Shown one piece after another: positions 1-9,201 of a stretch of 64,000 bases of DNA (its first letter is position 1; each line of letters starts with the position of its first letter). The notes under the pieces are model-generated. The model was not told the DNA's origin. It made no database searches and was given only the letters and a program-made list of their open reading frames with translations. A program made the translations under genes and the position numbers. Source of the stretch: Eubacterium sp. (GTDB lineage: Bacteria; Bacillota; Clostridia; Oscillospirales; Acutalibacteraceae); contig JAFWKC010000041.1 in NCBI GenBank assembly GCA_017514345.1, positions 326-64,325 on the forward strand, written 5' to 3'.

Positions 1-437
1 GCACCTTGAGAAGAAGTATCAACTTCTTCAATATCTTTTCTACTCACATTAAACTTATATATCTTTTGCACCTTACCATTGCCGTTTTCTTCATATCCAG
101 CAACTAAAAAATCTGTATTTGGGACAACATCCAACCCATTAAAATAATCAATGATGATTTGTGGCATATCACTAATAACACAATCCGACTTAATCTTAGT
201 CCTTATCATATCTTGGATATACCCAGTAATGGGCTTTCCCATTAACGAAGCATCACCACAAGTAGATATTCCCGCATTATTTGGACATAAAAAAGTCTTA
301 TCCGTAGAATTAGTAGTGTGAACACCGATGTTGTGAATGATTTCTAACCCGTTATGCTGAGTATTGGTATATGTAGTGCGGCGGTCACTCGCTAAAACAA
401 TGCCTTCATTCACGTGAACTGCTATTAAAAACGACAT
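1..437 (-). CDS. Proteasome-beta-like Ntn-hydrolase (3'-truncated by window edge; absent from ORF track)
   Basis: Manual translation: GGAGGA RBS (441-446), ATG at 437, MSFLIAVHVNEGIVLASDRRTTY...TNSTDKTFLCPNNAGISTCGDAS..., open to position 1. Ser1/Gly11/Asp17/Arg19 spacing matches proteasome beta/HslV N-termini. Confidence 0.7.
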   Translation of the reverse strand, partial: MSFLIAVHVNEGIVLASDRRTTYTNTQHNGLEIIHNIGVHTTNSTDKTFLCPNNAGISTCGDASLMGKPITGYIQDMIRTKIKSDCVISDMPQIIIDYFNGLDVVPNTDFLVAGYEENGNGKVQKIYKFNVSRKDIEEVDTSSQG

Positions 438-467
438 ACTTCCTCCAAAAAAATTGCTGTGTTTAAT

Positions 468-2435
468 CTATATGTTGCTACTTAAACAATCTTCATACCA
501 TTGATGAGGCGGTAAATTCGATTGATAAGCAGTTTCAAATACGCCGTATAAACTACGGTATAACAAGTGCCTATGAATTATCGCTTTAAGTGTATCCGTA
601 TTCAATGGAATGATTTTCATGCCATCTACAAACCGAGTGGTATCTTGTGTGTCGTAGTATGGCGTGTTCTTTCTTGACCTGAAATCAGAGATAACATTAA
701 TATCAAGATACGGAGTAATGAATACACAATATGAATTCATATTGCCCGTTCTGATTAAGTGCCTACCAAGATGACGGGATACCGGCTCCATTTCCATTCT
801 TCTCTGGTTGGTATCACTCGCAAGTGTAGCTTCAATAAGCAAGCTGTGTTCCGGATAGTCAGCCGTTTCTGAATACTCATAAACTAAGTCTGCTTCTCCG
901 CCTCCGGCATGTGTAACAGGCAACAAATCTGCATCACGTGACAATTTCATATAATTTAATATGTCGCCCTGCATTTCGCTCACCTTGTACCAAATGACGC
1001 CCAATACATACTCAAAAATAGTTGGTATATCGGCGTTATCAGTTACCATTCTGTGAATTTCATCATCGTTTCTGTTTTCAAAGTGTTCAAGAAGAGCCAA
1101 AAGCTTTTCATCTGTAAACTTATCGTCAATAAGCTGATGAAATCTTTGATATCTATCTTCACTAACGAAACGATAAACATCGCTTATTGTGGTAATATGA
1201 GTTCCGTACTCCTCGTTTATTCCGAATATAATCGTCGTTTCATTAATTGCCAATACAGGATTAATTCTTTCTATGCTACAATCGGCAAACAAACAATCAC
1301 ATTCATCATAAGCAGTACCATATAACTCTTCAATAATCGGTTTAAAGTACTGTTTTGGAATAATATCGAGCTTAACCTGATTATCTTCAAAAATAACAAC
1401 CTCTGTTGTTTTTATATACCTGCGGTTTAAATCTAAATAGTCTGATAATGTAGCCTTTGCTTTTAACAAATGCATTACTTTGAAGAATGCAGTTTTAAAC
1501 TCAGCCACATTGTTTATGTTATCAAAAAGAGTGTGATTAAGATGAGCATTTGGCTCACGCTCAATTTGAACTTTGGATACAGTATCAAATAAGTAACTTC
1601 TCCACAGTCTGCCTATCTTAATAGCTATTGTATCTGTATATACTTGTAATGCGCAATCGTAATTGTGATTTACGTACAAATCAAACAAATGCTGATAAAG
1701 CGGGAAGTATGTTTTGTCATAATTCCTGCTTTTTCTATTCATTCCAATGTTGCAAATCACTTCTTCCGTTACAGCGTTTTCTTGTAGCATTTGTAACGCT
1801 TGCTGATAATTATCCATTGTTAGTAATCTTTCAATGATAATCTCATCAATGGTAATTTGACTATTTCTGAGTGCACTAATTTCACGAATAATTCTATCCG
1901 TGTTCTGTGGGTCAGTACATAGCGGAAGCAGGTAAGTATATTCGTCTAAAGACAAATAATCAAGTTTTGACAACACATAAGCCATCACAATAAAAGGTCT
2001 AACGATAGTACCGTTTACCTTGTTATATGTTTTGAGCAATTGTTTAAAATATATGAAACTGTCTTTATCAATCTGAAAAGCGTTATCTGAAGAAAAGTCT
2101 CCACTTCTGCTTATTGCTAACAGGGCTTGTCCCGCTTCGGTCAGTTTTCTATCATCACTAATTAATCCAATGTCAACCAATCCCGAGGTTTTCTCTCTGG
2201 CGTCTTTGGGTTTATTGTTCGCTTCGCCTTTAACAAACCCTTTTGCGAGCATAAAATCATAATACTTAGATTGAAGTTCGTTATTTCCGGACCAGCTATA
2301 TACTGAGTTGTCATCGGTTCGCCAAAACTCATCTAATAACGCCAACTGTTCCTCAATAGTTTTATTAAAATTTTTAGTTCTGAAACTTGTCGTTCCAAGT
2401 CCCCAACAAAAGCTCTTATATGGAATACTATTCAT
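468..2435 (-). CDS. AlwI-family type IIS restriction endonuclease
   Basis: 655 aa; N-terminal WGLGTTSFR motif, C-terminal GGGEADL...LIEATL (PD-(D/E)xK-like) and EPVSRHL; directly downstream of two adenine MTases. Confidence 0.8.
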   Translation of the reverse strand: MNSIPYKSFCWGLGTTSFRTKNFNKTIEEQLALLDEFWRTDDNSVYSWSGNNELQSKYYDFMLAKGFVKGEANNKPKDAREKTSGLVDIGLISDDRKLTEAGQALLAISRSGDFSSDNAFQIDKDSFIYFKQLLKTYNKVNGTIVRPFIVMAYVLSKLDYLSLDEYTYLLPLCTDPQNTDRIIREISALRNSQITIDEIIIERLLTMDNYQQALQMLQENAVTEEVICNIGMNRKSRNYDKTYFPLYQHLFDLYVNHNYDCALQVYTDTIAIKIGRLWRSYLFDTVSKVQIEREPNAHLNHTLFDNINNVAEFKTAFFKVMHLLKAKATLSDYLDLNRRYIKTTEVVIFEDNQVKLDIIPKQYFKPIIEELYGTAYDECDCLFADCSIERINPVLAINETTIIFGINEEYGTHITTISDVYRFVSEDRYQRFHQLIDDKFTDEKLLALLEHFENRNDDEIHRMVTDNADIPTIFEYVLGVIWYKVSEMQGDILNYMKLSRDADLLPVTHAGGGEADLVYEYSETADYPEHSLLIEATLASDTNQRRMEMEPVSRHLGRHLIRTGNMNSYCVFITPYLDINVISDFRSRKNTPYYDTQDTTRFVDGMKIIPLNTDTLKAIIHRHLLYRSLYGVFETAYQSNLPPHQWYEDCLSSNI

Positions 2436-2445
2436 AAATTACTCC

Positions 2446-3387
2446 TTAGTAATTAGTAATCAATACCTCTTCTGTATTAGTGGTTCGGTCTTTTGTATGG
2501 TAGTTTGAGTTTGAATAATCAAAATTCAAATAGTGAACTATGAATCTTTCTTTGTTTGACTCTAACCAATCATTCAATATTTTGTTTTCTTTACCCTTGC
2601 TGCGTAACACATTCGATTCTGCAAACTTAATCCCTTTTTCGTCAAGTTTTTCTAAAAATGCAAGTAAATCCTTTTCGTCTTTTTCGGTCCATCCGTCTTG
2701 CTCATTGTATGAAGCACAAGTTATCAGATACGGCGGATCAATATATACAAAGTCGTTTTGATTAAGCTTAGAAATATCAAATTCACGAAAATCCTGACAA
2801 GTAAAACTGCAATCTTGGGATTGAATCCTGTCAATAAACTCATCCAATTTACTTTGCATTTTTATGTTGAAATCTCTTTTACCAACCGGAAGATTATACT
2901 CGCCGTTTGAGTTAAAACGAATTTGGTTATTAAATGCATAAACTATCATTACATATAGCATTAAATAATAGTAATAATCTTCGTTTTTGTTGTGATTGAA
3001 ATCATCTCGCAATTTCAAAAAATGCTCTCTGTTGTAATCGCCTAAACCTTTGCTGCTTTCACAGCCATAGTAATCGTATCCGTTTTTGCTTACAAGAGAG
3101 AGCTGATAATCTTCTATTATTTTGTAAATGGATTCAAATATTAAATCCTTGTCAAGATTCTTAAAGGTATTATACAAATACAGTAAATGCCTGTTCAAGT
3201 CGTTGTATATTACCTTATTGCTTTTGACATTGATTCCGACATTGCAACCACCACAGAACAAATCCACAAAACAATCAATTTCTTTTGGGAAGAAAGGAAG
3301 GATCTGAGGCAGCAATTTAAACTTGCCGCCTGTATAGTTCAATGGAGATTGAATAATCTTGATATTATCATCTAATTGCATTTGCAT
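2446..3387 (-). CDS. Dam/D12-class N6-adenine DNA methyltransferase (M2)
   Basis: SPLNYTGGKFKL, DLFCGG (SAM binding), YIDPPY catalytic motif. Confidence 0.9.
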   Translation of the reverse strand: MQMQLDDNIKIIQSPLNYTGGKFKLLPQILPFFPKEIDCFVDLFCGGCNVGINVKSNKVIYNDLNRHLLYLYNTFKNLDKDLIFESIYKIIEDYQLSLVSKNGYDYYGCESSKGLGDYNREHFLKLRDDFNHNKNEDYYYYLMLYVMIVYAFNNQIRFNSNGEYNLPVGKRDFNIKMQSKLDEFIDRIQSQDCSFTCQDFREFDISKLNQNDFVYIDPPYLITCASYNEQDGWTEKDEKDLLAFLEKLDEKGIKFAESNVLRSKGKENKILNDWLESNKERFIVHYLNFDYSNSNYHTKDRTTNTEEVLITNY

Positions 3388-4412
3388 AAAAACAATCTTT
3401 CCTCGTTATCATTGATATCTGATTTACCGGTTGAGAACGCTTTATAGCTTTCTGAAAAAACAGTTACCTCGCCCTTTGCCTTAAGGATTCTCATAATATC
3501 ATCATCGGATATCTTTGCGTTTGATCTATCGTTTCCTTTTTCAGCCATATTGTTATAAGAAAACAGTATGTATTTTGCTTTGATATTCTTAATTAAGTCT
3601 TCAAACGCTTCAGTTGCACTTTGAGTACAATACTTGCTCTTCATCGTGCTTCTATCCATTTTTTTAGCAACGCCGAACACTTCCGGCTTTTTCCATTGTG
3701 CAACATTTTCAAGAAGATGATAAGCGTCGCAATATTGTCTTGAGTTATAAGGAGGGTCTATGTAAACCAAATCTGCCTGTATTTCTTTTACAAGTTCATT
3801 AGCGTCCATATTGAAACACTGATTGTTTTTATTGTTTTCATCTTTTGCTAACGGAACATATAATTCAAGTGACTTCTCAAATTCAACGCCCTGACGATAT
3901 GCATCATAATGTCCGCAAGTATTTGCAATTTTATCCATTGCATACAGCAGAGAAGTAATCAATATTGCTCTTTCTCTCTTGTTAATATCACCTTTATTAA
4001 ACGAATCCTCAATATCTTCTCTTATGTAACCAATCTTTGCACAATCATCTCTGCTAAAGTAAGTATCTGCAAAATTTTCCGTCATATAGTTGTCGTCAAT
4101 ATTTTCAAGACTATTATAAAAAACTATTTTGTCGATAATAATTTCTTTGTCATATGTTTCGCTACCAAACCATGCATAATTGCAGATATAATTACTATAC
4201 ATCAAATCATTGGTGATTATGGTCTTATCATCGCTGAAAGCAGAAGAAACAGCCCCCGTTCCTGCAAAAATATCAGCAACAGTTTCAATATCATTACATT
4301 CTTTTTCAACAACGCCCTTAATAAATGACAATAGTTTATATTTGTTTCCCAAATATCTCCTGTTATTGATAAGTGATGTCTTATAAGTTCTTTCCTGCAC
4401 AAGCGTTCCCAT
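3372..4412 (-). CDS. N6-adenine DNA methyltransferase (M1, FokI-MTase-like half)
   Basis: RRYLGNKYKL, DIFAGTG, YIDPPYN motifs; overlaps M2 by 16 nt in a different frame. Confidence 0.9.
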   Translation of the reverse strand: MGTLVQERTYKTSLINNRRYLGNKYKLLSFIKGVVEKECNDIETVADIFAGTGAVSSAFSDDKTIITNDLMYSNYICNYAWFGSETYDKEIIIDKIVFYNSLENIDDNYMTENFADTYFSRDDCAKIGYIREDIEDSFNKGDINKRERAILITSLLYAMDKIANTCGHYDAYRQGVEFEKSLELYVPLAKDENNKNNQCFNMDANELVKEIQADLVYIDPPYNSRQYCDAYHLLENVAQWKKPEVFGVAKKMDRSTMKSKYCTQSATEAFEDLIKNIKAKYILFSYNNMAEKGNDRSNAKISDDDIMRILKAKGEVTVFSESYKAFSTGKSDINDNEERLFLCKCN

Positions 4413-4601
4413 AATCTCACCTCAAGGACATTATAACATACTATTACAATAATCCTGCATAAAACTTCTCGATAGTCCAAAAAACAGTACAATCAACATC
4501 GTTGCCGATTATCTGATAGATTTCCTATATTTACAAAAATTCCAGAAAACACTACATCTATGTATTAACCATTAAAAAAACAATATAAATATACAAGGTA
4601 T

Positions 4602-4630
4602 ATTATAATATCTATTAGTCAATAAGTCAA
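4602..4630 (-). promoter_or_regulatory. Sigma70-type promoter for the R-M operon
   Basis: Minus strand TTGACT-N17-TATAAT, about 190 bp upstream of the M1 start. Confidence 0.55.
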
Positions 4631-4717
4631 CAAAATATAATATATTAATTGGCTTGCTACGCATTTAACTCTTTCTATTATTTCGATAATTTCAATTTAA
4701 ATCGACTTCAAGAAGTC

Positions 4718-4825
4718 AGCATTTAAGAGCTCTGAAACCCGCATAATTACTGCGTTTCGAAAGGTCAAAATCGAGGGGTCAAGGGTATATCATTAAAATC
4801 CTCAAAAACCGCTTCTAAATGCTTA
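4718..4825. other. Structured ~110-nt element (copy 1), candidate single-strand origin or ncRNA
   Basis: Terminal IR AGCATTTA...TAAATGCT enclosing two inner stems; aligns with the reverse complement of 24187-24297. Confidence 0.55.
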
Positions 4826-4864
4826 CCTTGCCGAACAGAGCGAGGATTGCTCCTCGCTCCGATT

Positions 4865-5128
4865 TTATGAATATGCCTCTATTGTTAATCTTGCGCCTAA
4901 CTTGAAACCGATTTTAAAGCAATCAAGTTCAATTATTGTTGCTAATTCATTGCTACTTTTAATTAGCAAATCAAGCATGTTCTGTTGTTTTTCGCTGAGC
5001 ACTGCCTTTAATCGTTCTTGATTAAGGTTGTATGCTTCAACTGCTTTTCTATAATTTGAATCGCTTTCAAGATGGTCGAACTCCATCGGATTGATATTCC
5101 CGTTCCAAAACTCCTCAAGAAGATCCAT
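4865..5128 (-). CDS. Small IME-associated protein (DUF6809-like)
   Basis: 87 aa, LEEFWNGNINP...CFKIGFKLGARL pattern; position beside TnpV. Confidence 0.65.
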   Translation of the reverse strand: MDLLEEFWNGNINPMEFDHLESDSNYRKAVEAYNLNQERLKAVLSEKQQNMLDLLIKSSNELATIIELDCFKIGFKLGARLTIEAYS

Positions 5129-5131
5129 GAA

Positions 5132-5509
5132 TCACCTCGTATATATGACTTCATTGTTGACAATTTCTCTCGCCTGATTTGTGATGTTGTTCATCGCTTG
5201 TACCCAAGCCATCATATCGTCTGCTTTGAGTTGCTCCGTAATACCTTGCTGCTCCTTGAGTTGCTTGACAAGGCGGTCATACATCTCGGTTGCTCTGACG
5301 TCAACATCGTGCAGATATGCGTTCAGTTTGCAGTTCGTAAGCAAAGATGTGTAGAACACCTTGCGGTGCTGTTTGATATAACGAAGGTGCCGTTGTCCCC
5401 ACATTCCGATCTCATAATTCGTTTCGGCGGAGATGAGGTTAGGGAGGTAAACCTCCCCAACCAGCGTGTAATCGAGTCCGTTATTCTTATCTGAGATAAA
5501 CTCCGTCAT
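5132..5509 (-). CDS. tnpV: TnpV-family protein
   Basis: GLDYTLVGEVYLPNL...IGMWGQRHLRYIK...WVQAMNNI; start moved to 5509 on RBS spacing. Confidence 0.8.
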   Translation of the reverse strand: MTEFISDKNNGLDYTLVGEVYLPNLISAETNYEIGMWGQRHLRYIKQHRKVFYTSLLTNCKLNAYLHDVDVRATEMYDRLVKQLKEQQGITEQLKADDMMAWVQAMNNITNQAREIVNNEVIYTR

Positions 5510-6647
5510 TTTCATAATTCCTTTCATTTTGTTTTGGATGTTTTGCTGTTTCAAGCAGTTGGTCAACCTGTTTACTTCCGAGTATTTTTCGTAGCAGGCG
5601 GTAGTCTGATAACTGCTTATGCAGCTTGTGATTTTCCTTTTGATAATTTCGGTTGATTTCTTGCAAGTCAATGTTGTCAAAGCCTAACCTTGTATTTTCA
5701 TTATACAGTTTTGCATTTAGACTTCTTGATTCCATCAGCTCAACAAATACTTTTTTCACGAAGGCTTTGAGCTTGTTGAAGATACCTTCTATGCGACCTT
5801 TGTAACTCTTTGCCGACTCCAAACGCTGTGGTTCAGGGAGTGTGAACTCCTTTTCAAACTCCTCATCGTTGGATATTTCGGTTACCGTATCAATCGCTTT
5901 TGTAAGGTTTTCAGCCTTTGTTTTTAGTGCGTCAACCTCATCTTCAAGCTCCGCAACCTCCTTGCTGCGTTGCTCCCTTTTGTACTCCAAAACGGAGAGG
6001 TGTTCACGGTTGTTGCCCTGATTTTCCCATTCAATACCGTGATTTTTCATTATATAAGCAAGGGCTTCTTTTTCGGATTGCAGCCACGCCATTGTTTCCG
6101 TGTCGCTCCTTCCGGAGCCTCTGCATCCCTGCCTTTCAAGAGCCTGTTTCATGGATACTCTTGTGTCCAATCCTCTCTTGCTTTCGGTAGTAAAGGGGAT
6201 GAAATCAATGTGCAAATGGGGTGTTGCCTCGTCCATATGGAGCGTTGCGTTGAACACAAACAGGTAAGGATTTCGTGCATCAAAATGGTACATATATTCC
6301 TCTAAAACGGCTTTTGCCAACTGTTCTGTACGGGAGCCGATACCCATATCCTTGCGGTTACCGACCTGCACAATTATCTCATAAAAGGGCTTTTCCTGTT
6401 TGCTTTTTTGAATGTGTTCAAGATAGTTATCTATCTTTCTGTCGGCTCGTTTCTGCTTGTCATTATACCTCTGTAACGCTCCGTCAAAGAGGATATGATA
6501 AGCATCTTCAAGGGGGATATTTTTGTATTCCACATTGTTTTTTGTTCGTTCTCTGTCAACATTTTCGGCAATGAATTTTCGGTTGTTATGATCCAAAACG
6601 CCCTTGCCGAGTTCAATGCTGATACTTGATAAATACATATTTTTCAC
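5487..6647 (-). CDS. Mob/Pre (MobV-family) relaxase
   Basis: N-terminal HNNR, HMDEATPHLHIDF HUH motif, coiled-coil C-terminus. Confidence 0.85.
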   Translation of the reverse strand: MKNMYLSSISIELGKGVLDHNNRKFIAENVDRERTKNNVEYKNIPLEDAYHILFDGALQRYNDKQKRADRKIDNYLEHIQKSKQEKPFYEIIVQVGNRKDMGIGSRTEQLAKAVLEEYMYHFDARNPYLFVFNATLHMDEATPHLHIDFIPFTTESKRGLDTRVSMKQALERQGCRGSGRSDTETMAWLQSEKEALAYIMKNHGIEWENQGNNREHLSVLEYKREQRSKEVAELEDEVDALKTKAENLTKAIDTVTEISNDEEFEKEFTLPEPQRLESAKSYKGRIEGIFNKLKAFVKKVFVELMESRSLNAKLYNENTRLGFDNIDLQEINRNYQKENHKLHKQLSDYRLLRKILGSKQVDQLLETAKHPKQNERNYENDGVYLR

Positions 6648-6701
6648 CTGTCTTTCATAGTTTAAATTTGTCTTCGTAAAATTCGAGCTTTCTCGGTTCT
6701 G

Positions 6702-6763
6702 TTACTCTTGTCAAGAGTAACGCAATGGCACTTTTGACACTTACGCATCAAAAGTGCATTGCG
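6702..6763. other. Candidate oriT
   Basis: Two abutting inverted repeats just upstream of the relaxase: TTACTCTTG/CAAGAGTAA and CGCAATG-GCACTTTTGA/TCAAAAGTGC-ATTGCG. Confidence 0.55.
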
Positions 6764-6790
6764 CTCTCGCGAGGCGGAGAAAAAACGAAC

Positions 6791-6907
6791 CTACAAAGAC
6801 AACCGTATTATTGATTTGACATCGGCGAAAAGATTGTCTATACTATGATTGCTATACATAGCATGGCTGTCCGTATCTGCGCCAACAGATACATCAAGGA
6901 CAGTCAT
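6791..6907 (-). pseudogene. N-terminal remnant of a probable IME replication/AAA ATPase gene
   Basis: Manual translation MTVLDVSVGADTDSHAMYSNHSIDNLFADVKSIIRLSL*, overlapping the MobC-like stop; resembles the N-termini of genes I recall at this position in related elements. Confidence 0.4.
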
Positions 6908-7229
6908 TTTTATTTTCGCCTTTCATTCCATAAAGGGTTCGGTTAATTAAACAGATAGTGTCAAGCAATTCTTCGGAGGGAGTTTCGTCCTGCAATGTCT
7001 TCAACTCTTGCAGCACTTCTTCAAGCTGTCGTTTCAGGGCGATATATACCCTCGGATTACCCCGAACAATTATCTCCTTTTCAAGAGCACGATTGATGAG
7101 GTATTCCTGCTTGGTAAACCCGGAGAGTTTTACTCGGACATCCAACTCTTCATTCTCCTCCGGCGACATACGAAACGCTACCGTTTTGCTTCGCCATCTT
7201 CCTTTACGGTCATAATTCTTTCCAGACAT
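6894..7229 (-). CDS. MobC-like ribbon-helix-helix relaxosome protein
   Basis: KTVAFRMSPEENEEL...SGFTKQEYL; start at 7229 follows the integrase stop. Confidence 0.7.
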   Translation of the reverse strand: MSGKNYDRKGRWRSKTVAFRMSPEENEELDVRVKLSGFTKQEYLINRALEKEIIVRGNPRVYIALKRQLEEVLQELKTLQDETPSEELLDTICLINRTLYGMKGENKNDCP

Positions 7230-7230
7230 A

Positions 7231-8307
7231 CTAAGCGCTCCTTTCCAATTCAAGCTTGTCTGCCATCTCGTCCTGCCTTGACGGAAACATGTGAGCATAG
7301 TGATAAGTTATCTCTATGCTTTCGTGTCCTAACCTGTCGGCAATCTCTACTGCGGAGAAACCCATATTGATGAGTAGCGAGACATGCGAGTGTCTTAAAT
7401 CATGAATCCTGATTTTTGGAACGCCCGCCTTCTTGCTTCCTTCTCTCATTGCTCGGTAAAGAGCACTCTTTGAGAGAGGAAACATTCTGTCGTTGCTCTC
7501 TACTCCGTAGAGCATTGCAAGGTAGTCCGTCATCTCATCGCAGAGAAACTTTGGCAGCCGTATCGTTCTAATACTCTTCTGTGTTTTCGGCTCGGTAATC
7601 ACGTCCTTGCCATCAATTCGCTGATAGCTTTTGTTGATTCTGACCGTCTGCCGTTTGAAATCAAAGTCGGCAGGCGTCAGCGCTAAGAGTTCGCCTTCAC
7701 GGATTCCGCACCAGTAGAGCATTTCAAAAGCATAGTAGTGTATAGGCGATTCCATCATTACCTCTGCAAACTTTTTGTACTGTTCCTTCGTCCAGATTTG
7801 CATTTCTCTGTCGCTCTCCTTTTTGCCCATCGCTCCGGCTTTCCTTGCCGGGTTCTCTTTCAGTCCGTAATACTTCACAGCGTAATTCAGAATCGCGCTG
7901 ATTTGATTATGGATTGTTTTCAGATAGGTTTGAGAAAACGGCTTTCCATTCTCATCCTTCATATTCATCAACTCGTTCTGCCAAGCGATAATATCAGTCG
8001 CTTTAATTTCGTTGATTTTCTTTTCGCCGAAATATGGCAGTATCTTTGTTTTGATGATATGCTTTTTGCTATTGATGGTGTTGAGCTTCAGCCTTCCGCT
8101 TAACCCATCAAAATACAAATCCACAAAGGAATTTAAGGTCATATTACAAGCGCCCTGCAGCTTGATTAACTGTTCCCGTTCCCAAGCCTTTGCATCGCGC
8201 TGTGTAACAAATCCCCGTTTCTGCGTTTGCTTTCGCTCGCCCGTCCAGTCGGTATATCTGAACACGGCTCGCCAAGTGTTTGTTTTTGCGTCTTTATACA
8301 CAGACAT
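7231..8307 (-). CDS. int: Tyrosine recombinase / integrase
   Basis: GIREGELLAL (R), RIHDLRHSHVS (HxxR), LGHE...YHYAH (H/Y) with N-terminal arm-binding region. Confidence 0.95.
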   Translation of the reverse strand: MSVYKDAKTNTWRAVFRYTDWTGERKQTQKRGFVTQRDAKAWEREQLIKLQGACNMTLNSFVDLYFDGLSGRLKLNTINSKKHIIKTKILPYFGEKKINEIKATDIIAWQNELMNMKDENGKPFSQTYLKTIHNQISAILNYAVKYYGLKENPARKAGAMGKKESDREMQIWTKEQYKKFAEVMMESPIHYYAFEMLYWCGIREGELLALTPADFDFKRQTVRINKSYQRIDGKDVITEPKTQKSIRTIRLPKFLCDEMTDYLAMLYGVESNDRMFPLSKSALYRAMREGSKKAGVPKIRIHDLRHSHVSLLINMGFSAVEIADRLGHESIEITYHYAHMFPSRQDEMADKLELERSA

Positions 8308-8309
8308 TT

Positions 8310-8498
8310 TTATTCACCTCCTTCGTAGTCAAGTCTTTCATAAAAGTATTTGCGGTTGACTCTGCCTGCTACAACAATCTTTCCTTTTTCGGCAAGCTCG
8401 TTGTTTAACTGTTTCATTATCTTATACGCATACGACTCTGAAACACCCAGCACAGCGGCAACCTCATCCACTCTCATGAAGATAGTGCTATTTTCCAT
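8310..8498 (-). CDS. Excisionase-like HTH protein
   Basis: 62 aa, VDEVAAVLGVSESYAYKIM...GRVNRKYF; directly upstream of int. Confidence 0.75.
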   Translation of the reverse strand: MENSTIFMRVDEVAAVLGVSESYAYKIMKQLNNELAEKGKIVVAGRVNRKYFYERLDYEGGE

Positions 8499-8549
8499 CG
8501 CAACACCTCCTTAAAGTTTTAACAAATTTGGTTTTGTTTTGCTATTAAC

Positions 8550-8661
8550 CGTAACATATCTGTTACGATTTTTATATTAGCATACATTATTTTCTTTGTC
8601 AAGCATTTTCTTAACATTTTTGATAAGCTTATTGACATACCGTAACAAATATGATACAGTA
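8550..8661. promoter_or_regulatory. Divergent switch region with probable XRE operators
   Basis: Palindrome CGTAACA-N4-TGTTACG (8550-8567); degenerate copy CGTAACAaataTGaTAC (8641-8657) inside TTGACA-N17-TACAGT of the repressor gene. Confidence 0.55.
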
Positions 8662-8679
8662 ATGACGAGGTGAACAAAA

Positions 8680-9201
8680 ATGGCTATTAGCGAAAGAATA
8701 CGATTTATCAGAAAAAGGCGTAATATGACGCAGAAATATGTTGGCACGGTGCTCGGCTTTGGTGAGAAGAACGCCGATTCCCGTATTGCGCAATATGAAA
8801 ACGGAAGAAGAGAACCGAGAGAAGATGTCCTTGAGGAAATCGCCAAGATTTTGGGTGTATCCACCGATGCGCTTGATAACCCCAATCTTGATACATACAA
8901 CCGCTTAATGCATACCCTTTTTGCGATTGAGGATATTTACGGTTTAACGATTGACAGAATCGGCGGCAAGCTCTGCCTTGTTGCAGACGAAAGCAGACCG
9001 GAATGCTTTACCAATCTTTTCTCCCGTCTTAATGAGTGGAACGAAATGAAGGAAAAGTTGAAGGACGGCAAGATTGACGAAATCCAATATGACAACTGGC
9101 GTTACAACTATCCGACGCGCTTTGTGGAAATCAAACCGAGTCAAGAGCTCAGCGATATGCTTGTTGCGGAGTACAATAAGAATCATAAGAAAAAGAAATA
9201 A
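8680..9201 (+). CDS. XRE-family transcriptional repressor
   Basis: N-terminal HTH (IRKRRNMTQ...RIAQYENG); divergent from xis-int. Confidence 0.85.
   Translation: MAISERIRFIRKRRNMTQKYVGTVLGFGEKNADSRIAQYENGRREPREDVLEEIAKILGVSTDALDNPNLDTYNRLMHTLFAIEDIYGLTIDRIGGKLCLVADESRPECFTNLFSRLNEWNEMKEKLKDGKIDEIQYDNWRYNYPTRFVEIKPSQELSDMLVAEYNKNHKKKK

Follow-up and report, generated by a model that had tools for sequence, protein, structure and literature searches.

The window analysed here, a 64,000-nt stretch of a Eubacterium sp. contig (G000:C26:326-64325), begins inside an open reading frame (ORF) that had gone unannotated and that directly follows, on the same strand, the restriction endonuclease (REase) gene of a restriction-modification (R-M) operon. 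We asked what this ORF encodes and what its product might do beside R-M genes. In a six-frame ORF list it ran on the minus strand from position 437 to position 3 and past the left window edge, and extension of the contig leftwards (C26:1-1200, L002) recovered the complete ORF of 236 aa, with the contig end lying 51 bp past its stop codon (Table 1). The initial annotation had placed its start 30 bp past the REase stop, behind a GGAGGA ribosome-binding site and with no terminator in between, and all of this was confirmed from the sequence. Specifically, the REase stop codon occupies positions 470-468 and the ATG of the ORF positions 437-435, and we saw neither a minus-strand terminator-like hairpin nor a convincing promoter between the two genes. 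There was no earlier in-frame start, the open frame comprising just 246 codons.

Table 1. The peptidase gene, the R-M operon and the mobile backbone at the left end of the window. Positions are those of the window unless a contig is named.
Feature	Position	Strand	Basis or remark
Remainder of peptidase gene	G000:C26:52-325		Left of window
Proteasome-like Ntn peptidase gene, first 145 codons	3..437	-	ORF, predicted fold, conserved Ser2, Asp18, Arg20, Lys47, Gly61
Spacer from REase stop to peptidase start, 30 bp	438..467	-	Without terminator-like hairpin
GGAGGA, Shine-Dalgarno-like site	441..446	-	3 nt 5' of peptidase ATG, read from sequence
AlwI-family Type IIS restriction endonuclease, 655 aa, intact	468..2435	-	PF09491, 2.5e-74
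D12-class N6-adenine DNA methyltransferase M2	2446..3387	-	PF02086, 1.9e-38
D12-class N6-adenine DNA methyltransferase M1	3372..4412	-	PF02086, 3.4e-34
DUF6809, small protein of mobilizable element	4865..5128	-	
TnpV-family protein, longest-ORF coordinates	5132..5680	-	True start probably further downstream
Mob_Pre-family relaxase	5487..6647	-	PF01076, 6.5e-20
NikA-like mobilisation accessory protein	6894..7298	-	
Tyrosine integrase, Arm-binding, SAM-like and catalytic domains	7231..8307	-	
Excisionase-like protein, 62 aa	8310..8498	-	62-63-aa ORF at same spot in related elements
HTH regulator, 173 aa, divergent from integrase	8680..9201	+	Conserved in related elements

Single-sequence searches were insufficient to identify the encoded protein, for which a family profile and structure prediction were required. 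In such searches, the matches to the Pfam Proteasome model (PF00227; 14.3 bits vs a gathering cut-off of 22.4) and to NCBIfam 20S_bact_beta (13.7 bits vs a cut-off of 191.9) were below threshold and covered the N-terminal 35 residues. Additionally, none of the PADLOC-DB v2 defence-protein HMM families matched at E≤10, and phmmer returned nothing significant from the PDB. A word-indexed search gathered 490 clusters of relatives, all of ~236 aa and without Pfam domains, and an exhaustive search (E≤1e-3) yielded at least 763 representative 50%-identity clusters from bacteria and archaea, with the family being abundant in gut Clostridia. It is a widespread, uncharacterised family that falls outside every Pfam, NCBIfam or PADLOC model.

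Within an alignment of 75 diverse homologues, residue 2 was Ser in 60, Thr in 12, Ala in two and Gly in one, while D18 (74/75), R20 (70/75), K47 (72/75) and G61 (74/75) were strongly conserved, and G114, G150 and a C-terminal VGGxxD motif were also near-invariant. Given that the active-site residues are near-invariant in such diverse homologues, they do not represent a chance pattern. The Ser directly follows the Met; numbered from this Ser, the residues read S1, G11, D17, R19, K46 and G60, as had been stated initially. The spacing of 14 between K47 and G61 equals that between Lys33 and Gly47 of the proteasome, and a 13-residue insertion separates the Asp from the Lys in this family. Judged by sequence and spacing, equivalents of proteasome Asp17, Lys33 and Gly47 appear to be present, and the protein is predicted to carry an N-terminal Ser/Thr nucleophile that is exposed by Met removal, with no propeptide.

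Structure prediction pointed in the same direction. The AlphaFold2 model, for which the family alignment was the input, had a pLDDT of 97.3 and a pTM of 0.91, and the predicted fold was that of the proteasome-like Ntn superfamily, a four-layer alpha-beta-beta-alpha arrangement with core strands S1-S11 and helices H1-H4 (H1 at residues 70-81 and H2 at 88-100). The model also had a long S2/S3 beta-hairpin (residues 21-42), an insertion between H3 and H4 (~160-185), and a C-terminus formed by strands (218-231) without a helix H5. A Foldseek search of the PDB returned 248 matches at E≤1e-3, with a probability of 1.0 to 20S beta subunits and Anbu, and all 50 PDB matches listed were 20S beta-type subunits or Anbu (TM 0.55-0.68). 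The best structural match among viral models was an annotated proteasome beta subunit (TM 0.78/0.84). Finally, the family profile matched yeast proteasome beta1 (E 1.7e-5), with Ser2 in register with the mature Thr1. The proteasome-beta fold and the Ser nucleophile with its Asp, Lys and Gly equivalents, as first proposed from the sequence of the window, are supported by the model, the Foldseek matches, and the conserved residues.

We then considered where genes of this family are found. Relatives were encoded in 437 stretches among 185,579 species genomes, and the hosts were patchy, comprising Clostridia, Bacteroidota, Bifidobacterium, Kiritimatiellia, Chloroflexota, a CPR lineage, Gammaproteobacteria and Methanoregula. 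Our context analysis covered the best-scoring 80 of these 437 loci, related elements included. Among these 80, the commonest neighbour families of the peptidase were R-M components (in the proximal-gene tally, N6_Mtase 9, Methylase_S 7, DpnII 5, N6_N4 5 and Eco47II 4), and annotation of cluster representatives placed the peptidase gene within or at an R-M operon in 19 of the 80 species-level loci, a figure of 24% that is not an unbiased frequency since the loci are the best-scoring ones and include related elements. With X denoting the peptidase, the arrangements were hsdR-(x)-hsdS-X-hsdM in five loci (gaps of -34 to +79 bp), hsdM-hsdS-X-YhcG in two, hsdM-X-hsdS in one, DpnII-MTase-X in five, and C5-MTase-Eco47II-X in five or six. 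The AlwI system of the window and of L104-L109 constitutes a fourth unrelated REase/R-M type beside Type I, DpnII and Eco47II. At offsets of ±6 to 9 in the same loci, no R-M family had two or more members among 150 genes; the R-M linkage is therefore local and not a broad island effect. The enrichment of homologues beside R-M genes that would be expected of a defence-associated component was in this way borne out by the 19 loci and the distal-gene control. PADLOC tallies of the neighbours were of little further use, being dominated by redundant R-M models.

In a maximum-likelihood tree, R-M-linked members were placed in at least six clades, and one shallow, well-supported clade mixed DpnII-, Eco47II- and AlwI-linked members with unlinked ones. 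Of 76 loci, 61 had an upstream neighbour that was co-directional with the peptidase gene, and in 44 the two genes were ≤60 bp apart. Clustering of the ±4 neighbours in the best 80 loci revealed no single obligate partner gene that recurs, and no consistent unfoldase partner was found among them. We also rejected the idea that the peptidase is a backbone gene of one integrative mobilizable element (IME) family. The backbone genes were common to just 7 of the 80 loci, so a single element does not account for the R-M linkage. Among metagenome contigs, the peptidase was also seen alone, as the terminal cargo of a related IME.

A gene other than those of R-M systems also recurred as a neighbour. 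DUF6414, which is DolA of the Dodola defence system (bioRxiv 10.1101/2024.10.26.620412), directly flanked the peptidase, on either side, in L003-L007 (8720-9532), L020 (5139-5948) and L051 (7389-8201). Metagenome contigs also showed the order C5-MTase-Eco47II-X-DUF6414, inserted between housekeeping genes. Overall, members of the peptidase family recur in tight linkage with R-M systems of four unrelated types and with a DolA-like gene.

Two side observations concern the neighbours of R-M-linked members. In DpnII-linked loci (L031, 2343-3086; L032, L033 and L035), the peptidase was followed by a conserved protein of 247 aa that lacks a Pfam match. In Type I loci (L029, 10737-11801; L034), a YhcG/DUF1016 PDDEXK nuclease shared with the peptidase the slot after hsdS, which is the slot that PrrC occupies in the EcoprrI locus.

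Turning to the host element, upstream of the peptidase on the same strand lie the AlwI-family REase and two D12/Dam-class methyltransferases (MTases), with no C-protein in the operon. Beyond these, DUF6809, TnpV, Mob_Pre, NikA and the tyrosine integrase together constitute an IME, and the mobile-element location claimed in the initial annotation was upheld by the integrase, NikA, Mob_Pre and TnpV. About 190 bp at the 3' end of Mob_Pre are shared with the longest TnpV ORF, but the true TnpV start is probably near 5509, since homologues are ~125 aa. The 3' end of guaA is located immediately upstream of related elements (L106:1-88; L011:1-257). The peptidase proved not to be the last gene of an M1-M2-R-X operon. 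Past it, on the same strand, the array continues with genes for a 290-aa protein and then a ClpB-like AAA+ ATPase, found in the host genome at G000:C12:9969-12010 (L113; minus strand), with an assembly gap of ~29 bp between the end of C12 and the start of C26.

We compared divergence between the host element (window 1-9201 plus L113) and the related element L106. Backbone and R-M genes shared 95-98% nucleotide identity (dS 0.10-0.26), with DUF6809 an outlier at 91%, the 290-aa/AAA+ pair shared 87% (dS ~0.7), and the peptidase gene shared 81% (dS 1.17, dN/dS 0.08), with dN/dS being 0.02-0.09 for all genes compared. Because dS differs by block, the cargo is made up of three blocks that have been exchanged separately, and purifying selection acts on each. 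The peptidase ORF is a real gene under purifying selection, and it is an independently exchanged module with its own recombination history that is not specific to AlwI R-M. A cassette with conserved flanks was considered and rejected, as similarity to other loci at the nucleotide level does not extend past the ends of the peptidase ORF.

Among related genomes, the peptidase gene was present in one of 41 and missing from 40, including 24 of the same genus. Searches with tblastn of 50,697 phage records and 72,556 plasmids gave no match, and IMG/VR (2.9 M contigs) held 10 distant relatives. A phage counter-defence origin was discarded on the basis of these phage and plasmid records without a match and just 10 distant IMG/VR relatives. 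The gene is accessory and horizontally moving.

Our preferred reading, to which we assign a probability of roughly 55%, is that the gene is a propeptide-less Ntn peptidase module that has been recombined into R-M and other defence cargo and has a role in the conflict between host and mobile DNA. The gene product would be a catalytically competent proteasome-like Ntn peptidase without a propeptide, in which removal of the initiator Met would expose the Ser1 nucleophile, assisted by the equivalents of Asp17, Lys33 and Gly47. Recombination would repeatedly put this single-gene module 3' of or inside R-M operons, or into other defence cargo carried by mobile elements, and there it would most likely be read from the upstream operon promoter. 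Its proteolytic activity would most probably serve in host-vs-mobile-DNA conflict, whether by assisting restriction or by acting as a defence effector on its own. The gene is best read as coding for a defence-linked peptidase, and its product is a credible candidate for a new proteolytic part of bacterial defence.

More tentatively, the peptidase may form a single-gene proteolytic immune module, a 'defence proteasome', that acts alongside restriction. It might do so by destroying unstructured anti-restriction proteins and peptides of phages or plasmids, or as a PrrC-like second-line effector that would be released upon inhibition of the neighbouring R-M complex. The mechanisms put forward in the initial annotation, namely removal of an anti-restriction protein or control of REase levels, are speculative. 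To our knowledge, almost no biological role has been assigned to proteasome-like Ntn hydrolases beyond the 20S core and HslV, and full-text searches found no literature connecting anti-phage defence with proteasome-like or Ntn proteins. A proteasome-like family now has an informative R-M and defence context, which provides a concrete, testable hypothesis for its function. If the preferred reading is correct, prokaryotic defence, or the set of R-M accessories, would gain a new enzymatic class in the Ntn peptidases, and the role of an orphan proteasome homologue without an unfoldase may be explained; if the 'defence proteasome' exists, proteasome-like degradation would enter prokaryotic antiviral immunity. 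The peptidase is a good candidate for experiments on a role as a defence component.

Among the alternatives, the one that survives best, which we judge somewhat unlikely, is that we are dealing with a general cytoplasmic peptidase or amidase of housekeeping or niche metabolic function, whose gene lands by chance in variable cargo regions that also gather R-M genes. This explanation is still viable because about three quarters of the best 80 of 437 loci had no recognised R-M or defence neighbour, and because these 80 are not an unbiased sample. Many loci adjoin housekeeping genes (DegT aminotransferase, DUF2284, oxidoreductases), vertically conserved contexts occur in Peptococcaceae and Methanoregula, and the study that described new proteasome homologues likewise reported no informative contexts for them (Fuchs et al. 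2021; PMC8665760). However, a chance passenger fits poorly with R-M genes that immediately adjoin or overlap the peptidase gene and are missing among the distal genes of the same loci, with a linkage that recurs across at least six clades and four R-M types, and with a gene that is embedded between hsdS and hsdM. The DolA-like pairing and the absence of the gene from 40 related genomes also argue against it.

It is unlikely that the peptidase regulates its own R-M system by degrading the cognate REase/HsdR or MTase, tuning the R:M balance in a naive host, either as a built-in form of ClpXP-like restriction alleviation or by making post-segregational killing stronger. Such a regulator would be at home in the tight or translational coupling between hsdS and hsdM seen in Type I operons, at the 3' end of Type II operons without a C-protein, as here, and on an IME that needs to become established in new hosts, and ClpXP degradation of HsdR would be an analogous precedent. 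Nevertheless, the family is found behind four structurally unrelated REases and also at loci without any R-M, so that a specific REase substrate is unlikely. In the sister element L105, moreover, the AlwI REase (7005-8972) has an in-frame stop at codon 84, and gene calls in L107-L109 have the same split of the REase into 83 and 570 aa. Both MTases, the peptidase, and the downstream pair are intact beside the broken REase in all four of these elements, while the REase itself is intact in the window and in L106. The history of the peptidase gene is also decoupled from that of the R-M genes, as seen in dS. The diversity of R-M partners, the solo loci, and survival beside a dead REase are hard to reconcile with a dedicated REase regulator.

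Very unlikely, in our assessment, is a three-gene protease machine in which the peptidase, the 290-aa protein, and the ClpB-like ATPase would work by the logic of HslVU or of the proteasome and its ATPase, perhaps as a Dodola-like system with a protease. The three genes do stand in a row on one strand in the host. The L104 contig carries an identical peptidase followed by a 283/290-aa protein and a 390-aa AAA+ ATPase, the same succession is present in L105-L109 of the nearest relative, and the trio appears again at deep divergence inside a Type I operon (L053). The 390-aa single-ring ATPase matches the D2 ring of ClpC/ClpA/ClpB (E 5e-25), and DUF6414 adjoins the peptidase elsewhere. Against such a machine, the peptidase occurred without the pair in 79 of 80 loci (best 80 of 437), and the pair without the peptidase in L114-L123, where it was located behind DpnII and Mrr on the same IME family, behind an XamI/Eco57I-type R-M system in Eubacterium minutum, and behind a Phd/PIN TA pair on a conjugative element. 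The 290-aa gene overlaps the ATPase gene by 4 bp and is separated from the peptidase gene by ~100-120 bp, and dS differs between the peptidase (1.17) and the pair (~0.7). The pair is an independent two-gene module, and a candidate Dodola-like system in its own right. Its 290-aa protein belongs to a large unannotated family (986 matches), for which a profile search of the PDB found nothing and the AlphaFold2 model was poor (pLDDT 44). We rejected its identification as a divergent DolA/DUF6414, with an hhalign probability of 0.8% between the two families and no PF19952 match in the host's own genome.

The least probable alternative, to which we give very little credence, is that the protein is a sequence-specific, connectase-like protein ligase or transpeptidase and not a degradative protease: the predicted active-site architecture and lack of a propeptide are shared, the family profile weakly matched connectase MJ0548 (E 0.045, residues 1-36), and the insertions may block ring assembly (Fuchs 2021; PMC8665760), yet the structural matches favour beta subunits and Anbu, and the model keeps both H1 and H2 and has a beta-hairpin extension in place of the two-helix S3/S4 lid.

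How, then, does the defence-linked peptidase compare with known systems? The 20S beta subunit, HslV, Anbu and BPH have the alpha-beta-beta-alpha fold that is predicted for the peptidase, an N-terminal Ser/Thr, and equivalents of Asp17, Arg19, Lys33 and Gly47, and in Anbu and BPH, as in the peptidase, a propeptide is absent. Unlike all four, the peptidase has a 13-residue extension of the S2/S3 hairpin and an H3/H4 insertion in the model, lacks H5, and belongs to a family that is patchy, horizontally transferred, and linked to R-M operons; unlike 20S, HslV and Anbu, it stands without HslU, Anbu operon partners or an alpha subunit. HslV is a compact subunit of ~175 aa without insertions that adjoins HslU, whereas the peptidase has 236 aa and two insertions, and no HslU neighbour was present in the best 80 of 437 loci. 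Identity with HslV was rejected on size, insertions and the lack of HslU, the downstream AAA+ ATPase being Clp-D2-like and part of a separate module. Anbu has a long C-terminal H5 coiled-coil helix and an operon with ATP-grasp, alpha-E and transglutaminase-like genes. Its identity was also rejected, as the model is without H5 and none of the Anbu partner families appeared in the top 25 neighbour families that each tally for the best 80 loci listed. Connectase has a two-helix lid between S3 and S4, lacks H1 and H2, and is restricted to methanogens; the presence of H1 and H2 in the model, an insertion that is a beta-hairpin (21-42), and a mostly bacterial family spoke against that identity.

Likenesses are also found among the 22 new proteasome-like families (PMI-1..6, FC1-5 and others) described by Fuchs, Alva and Lupas in 2021 (PMC8665760). 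An H3/H4 insertion is typical of PMI-2..6, as it is of the peptidase family, and the phylum spread resembles that of PMI-2 and PMI-4, covering Firmicutes, Bacteroidetes, Actinobacteria, PVC and Euryarchaeota (PMC8665760). The Fuchs homologues are of group-II type, with multiple insertions and no AAA+ partner, as is the peptidase, the comparison being based on insertion pattern and taxon spread only. [quoted passage not shown]

Dodola consists of DolA (DUF6414) and DolB, a ClpB-like ATPase, and in our host a pair with a ClpB-like AAA+ ATPase lies directly downstream of the peptidase. The peptidase is not among the described Dodola components, however, and the 290-aa protein is not detectably DUF6414. 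The host's own genome contains the ClpB-like ATPase without a PF19952 match, and the DUF6414-flanked peptidase loci had no ClpB-like DolB nearby. The pairing of the peptidase with DolA may be separate from canonical Dodola.

The PrrC-EcoprrI paradigm is that of a latent second-line effector guarded by an R-M complex. The anticodon nucleases PrrC and RloC likewise represent a non-R-M gene beside hsdS inside a Type I operon, and the peptidase is likened to them by position, although it is a peptidase rather than an RNase or ATPase and also occurs attached to Type II systems and alone. Lastly, ClpXP degrades HsdR, the basis of restriction alleviation of Type I systems, in which proteolysis modulates restriction. 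This is a candidate likeness for the peptidase, by analogy, with the difference that ClpXP is a housekeeping protease of the host while the peptidase described here is encoded in the R-M operon itself.
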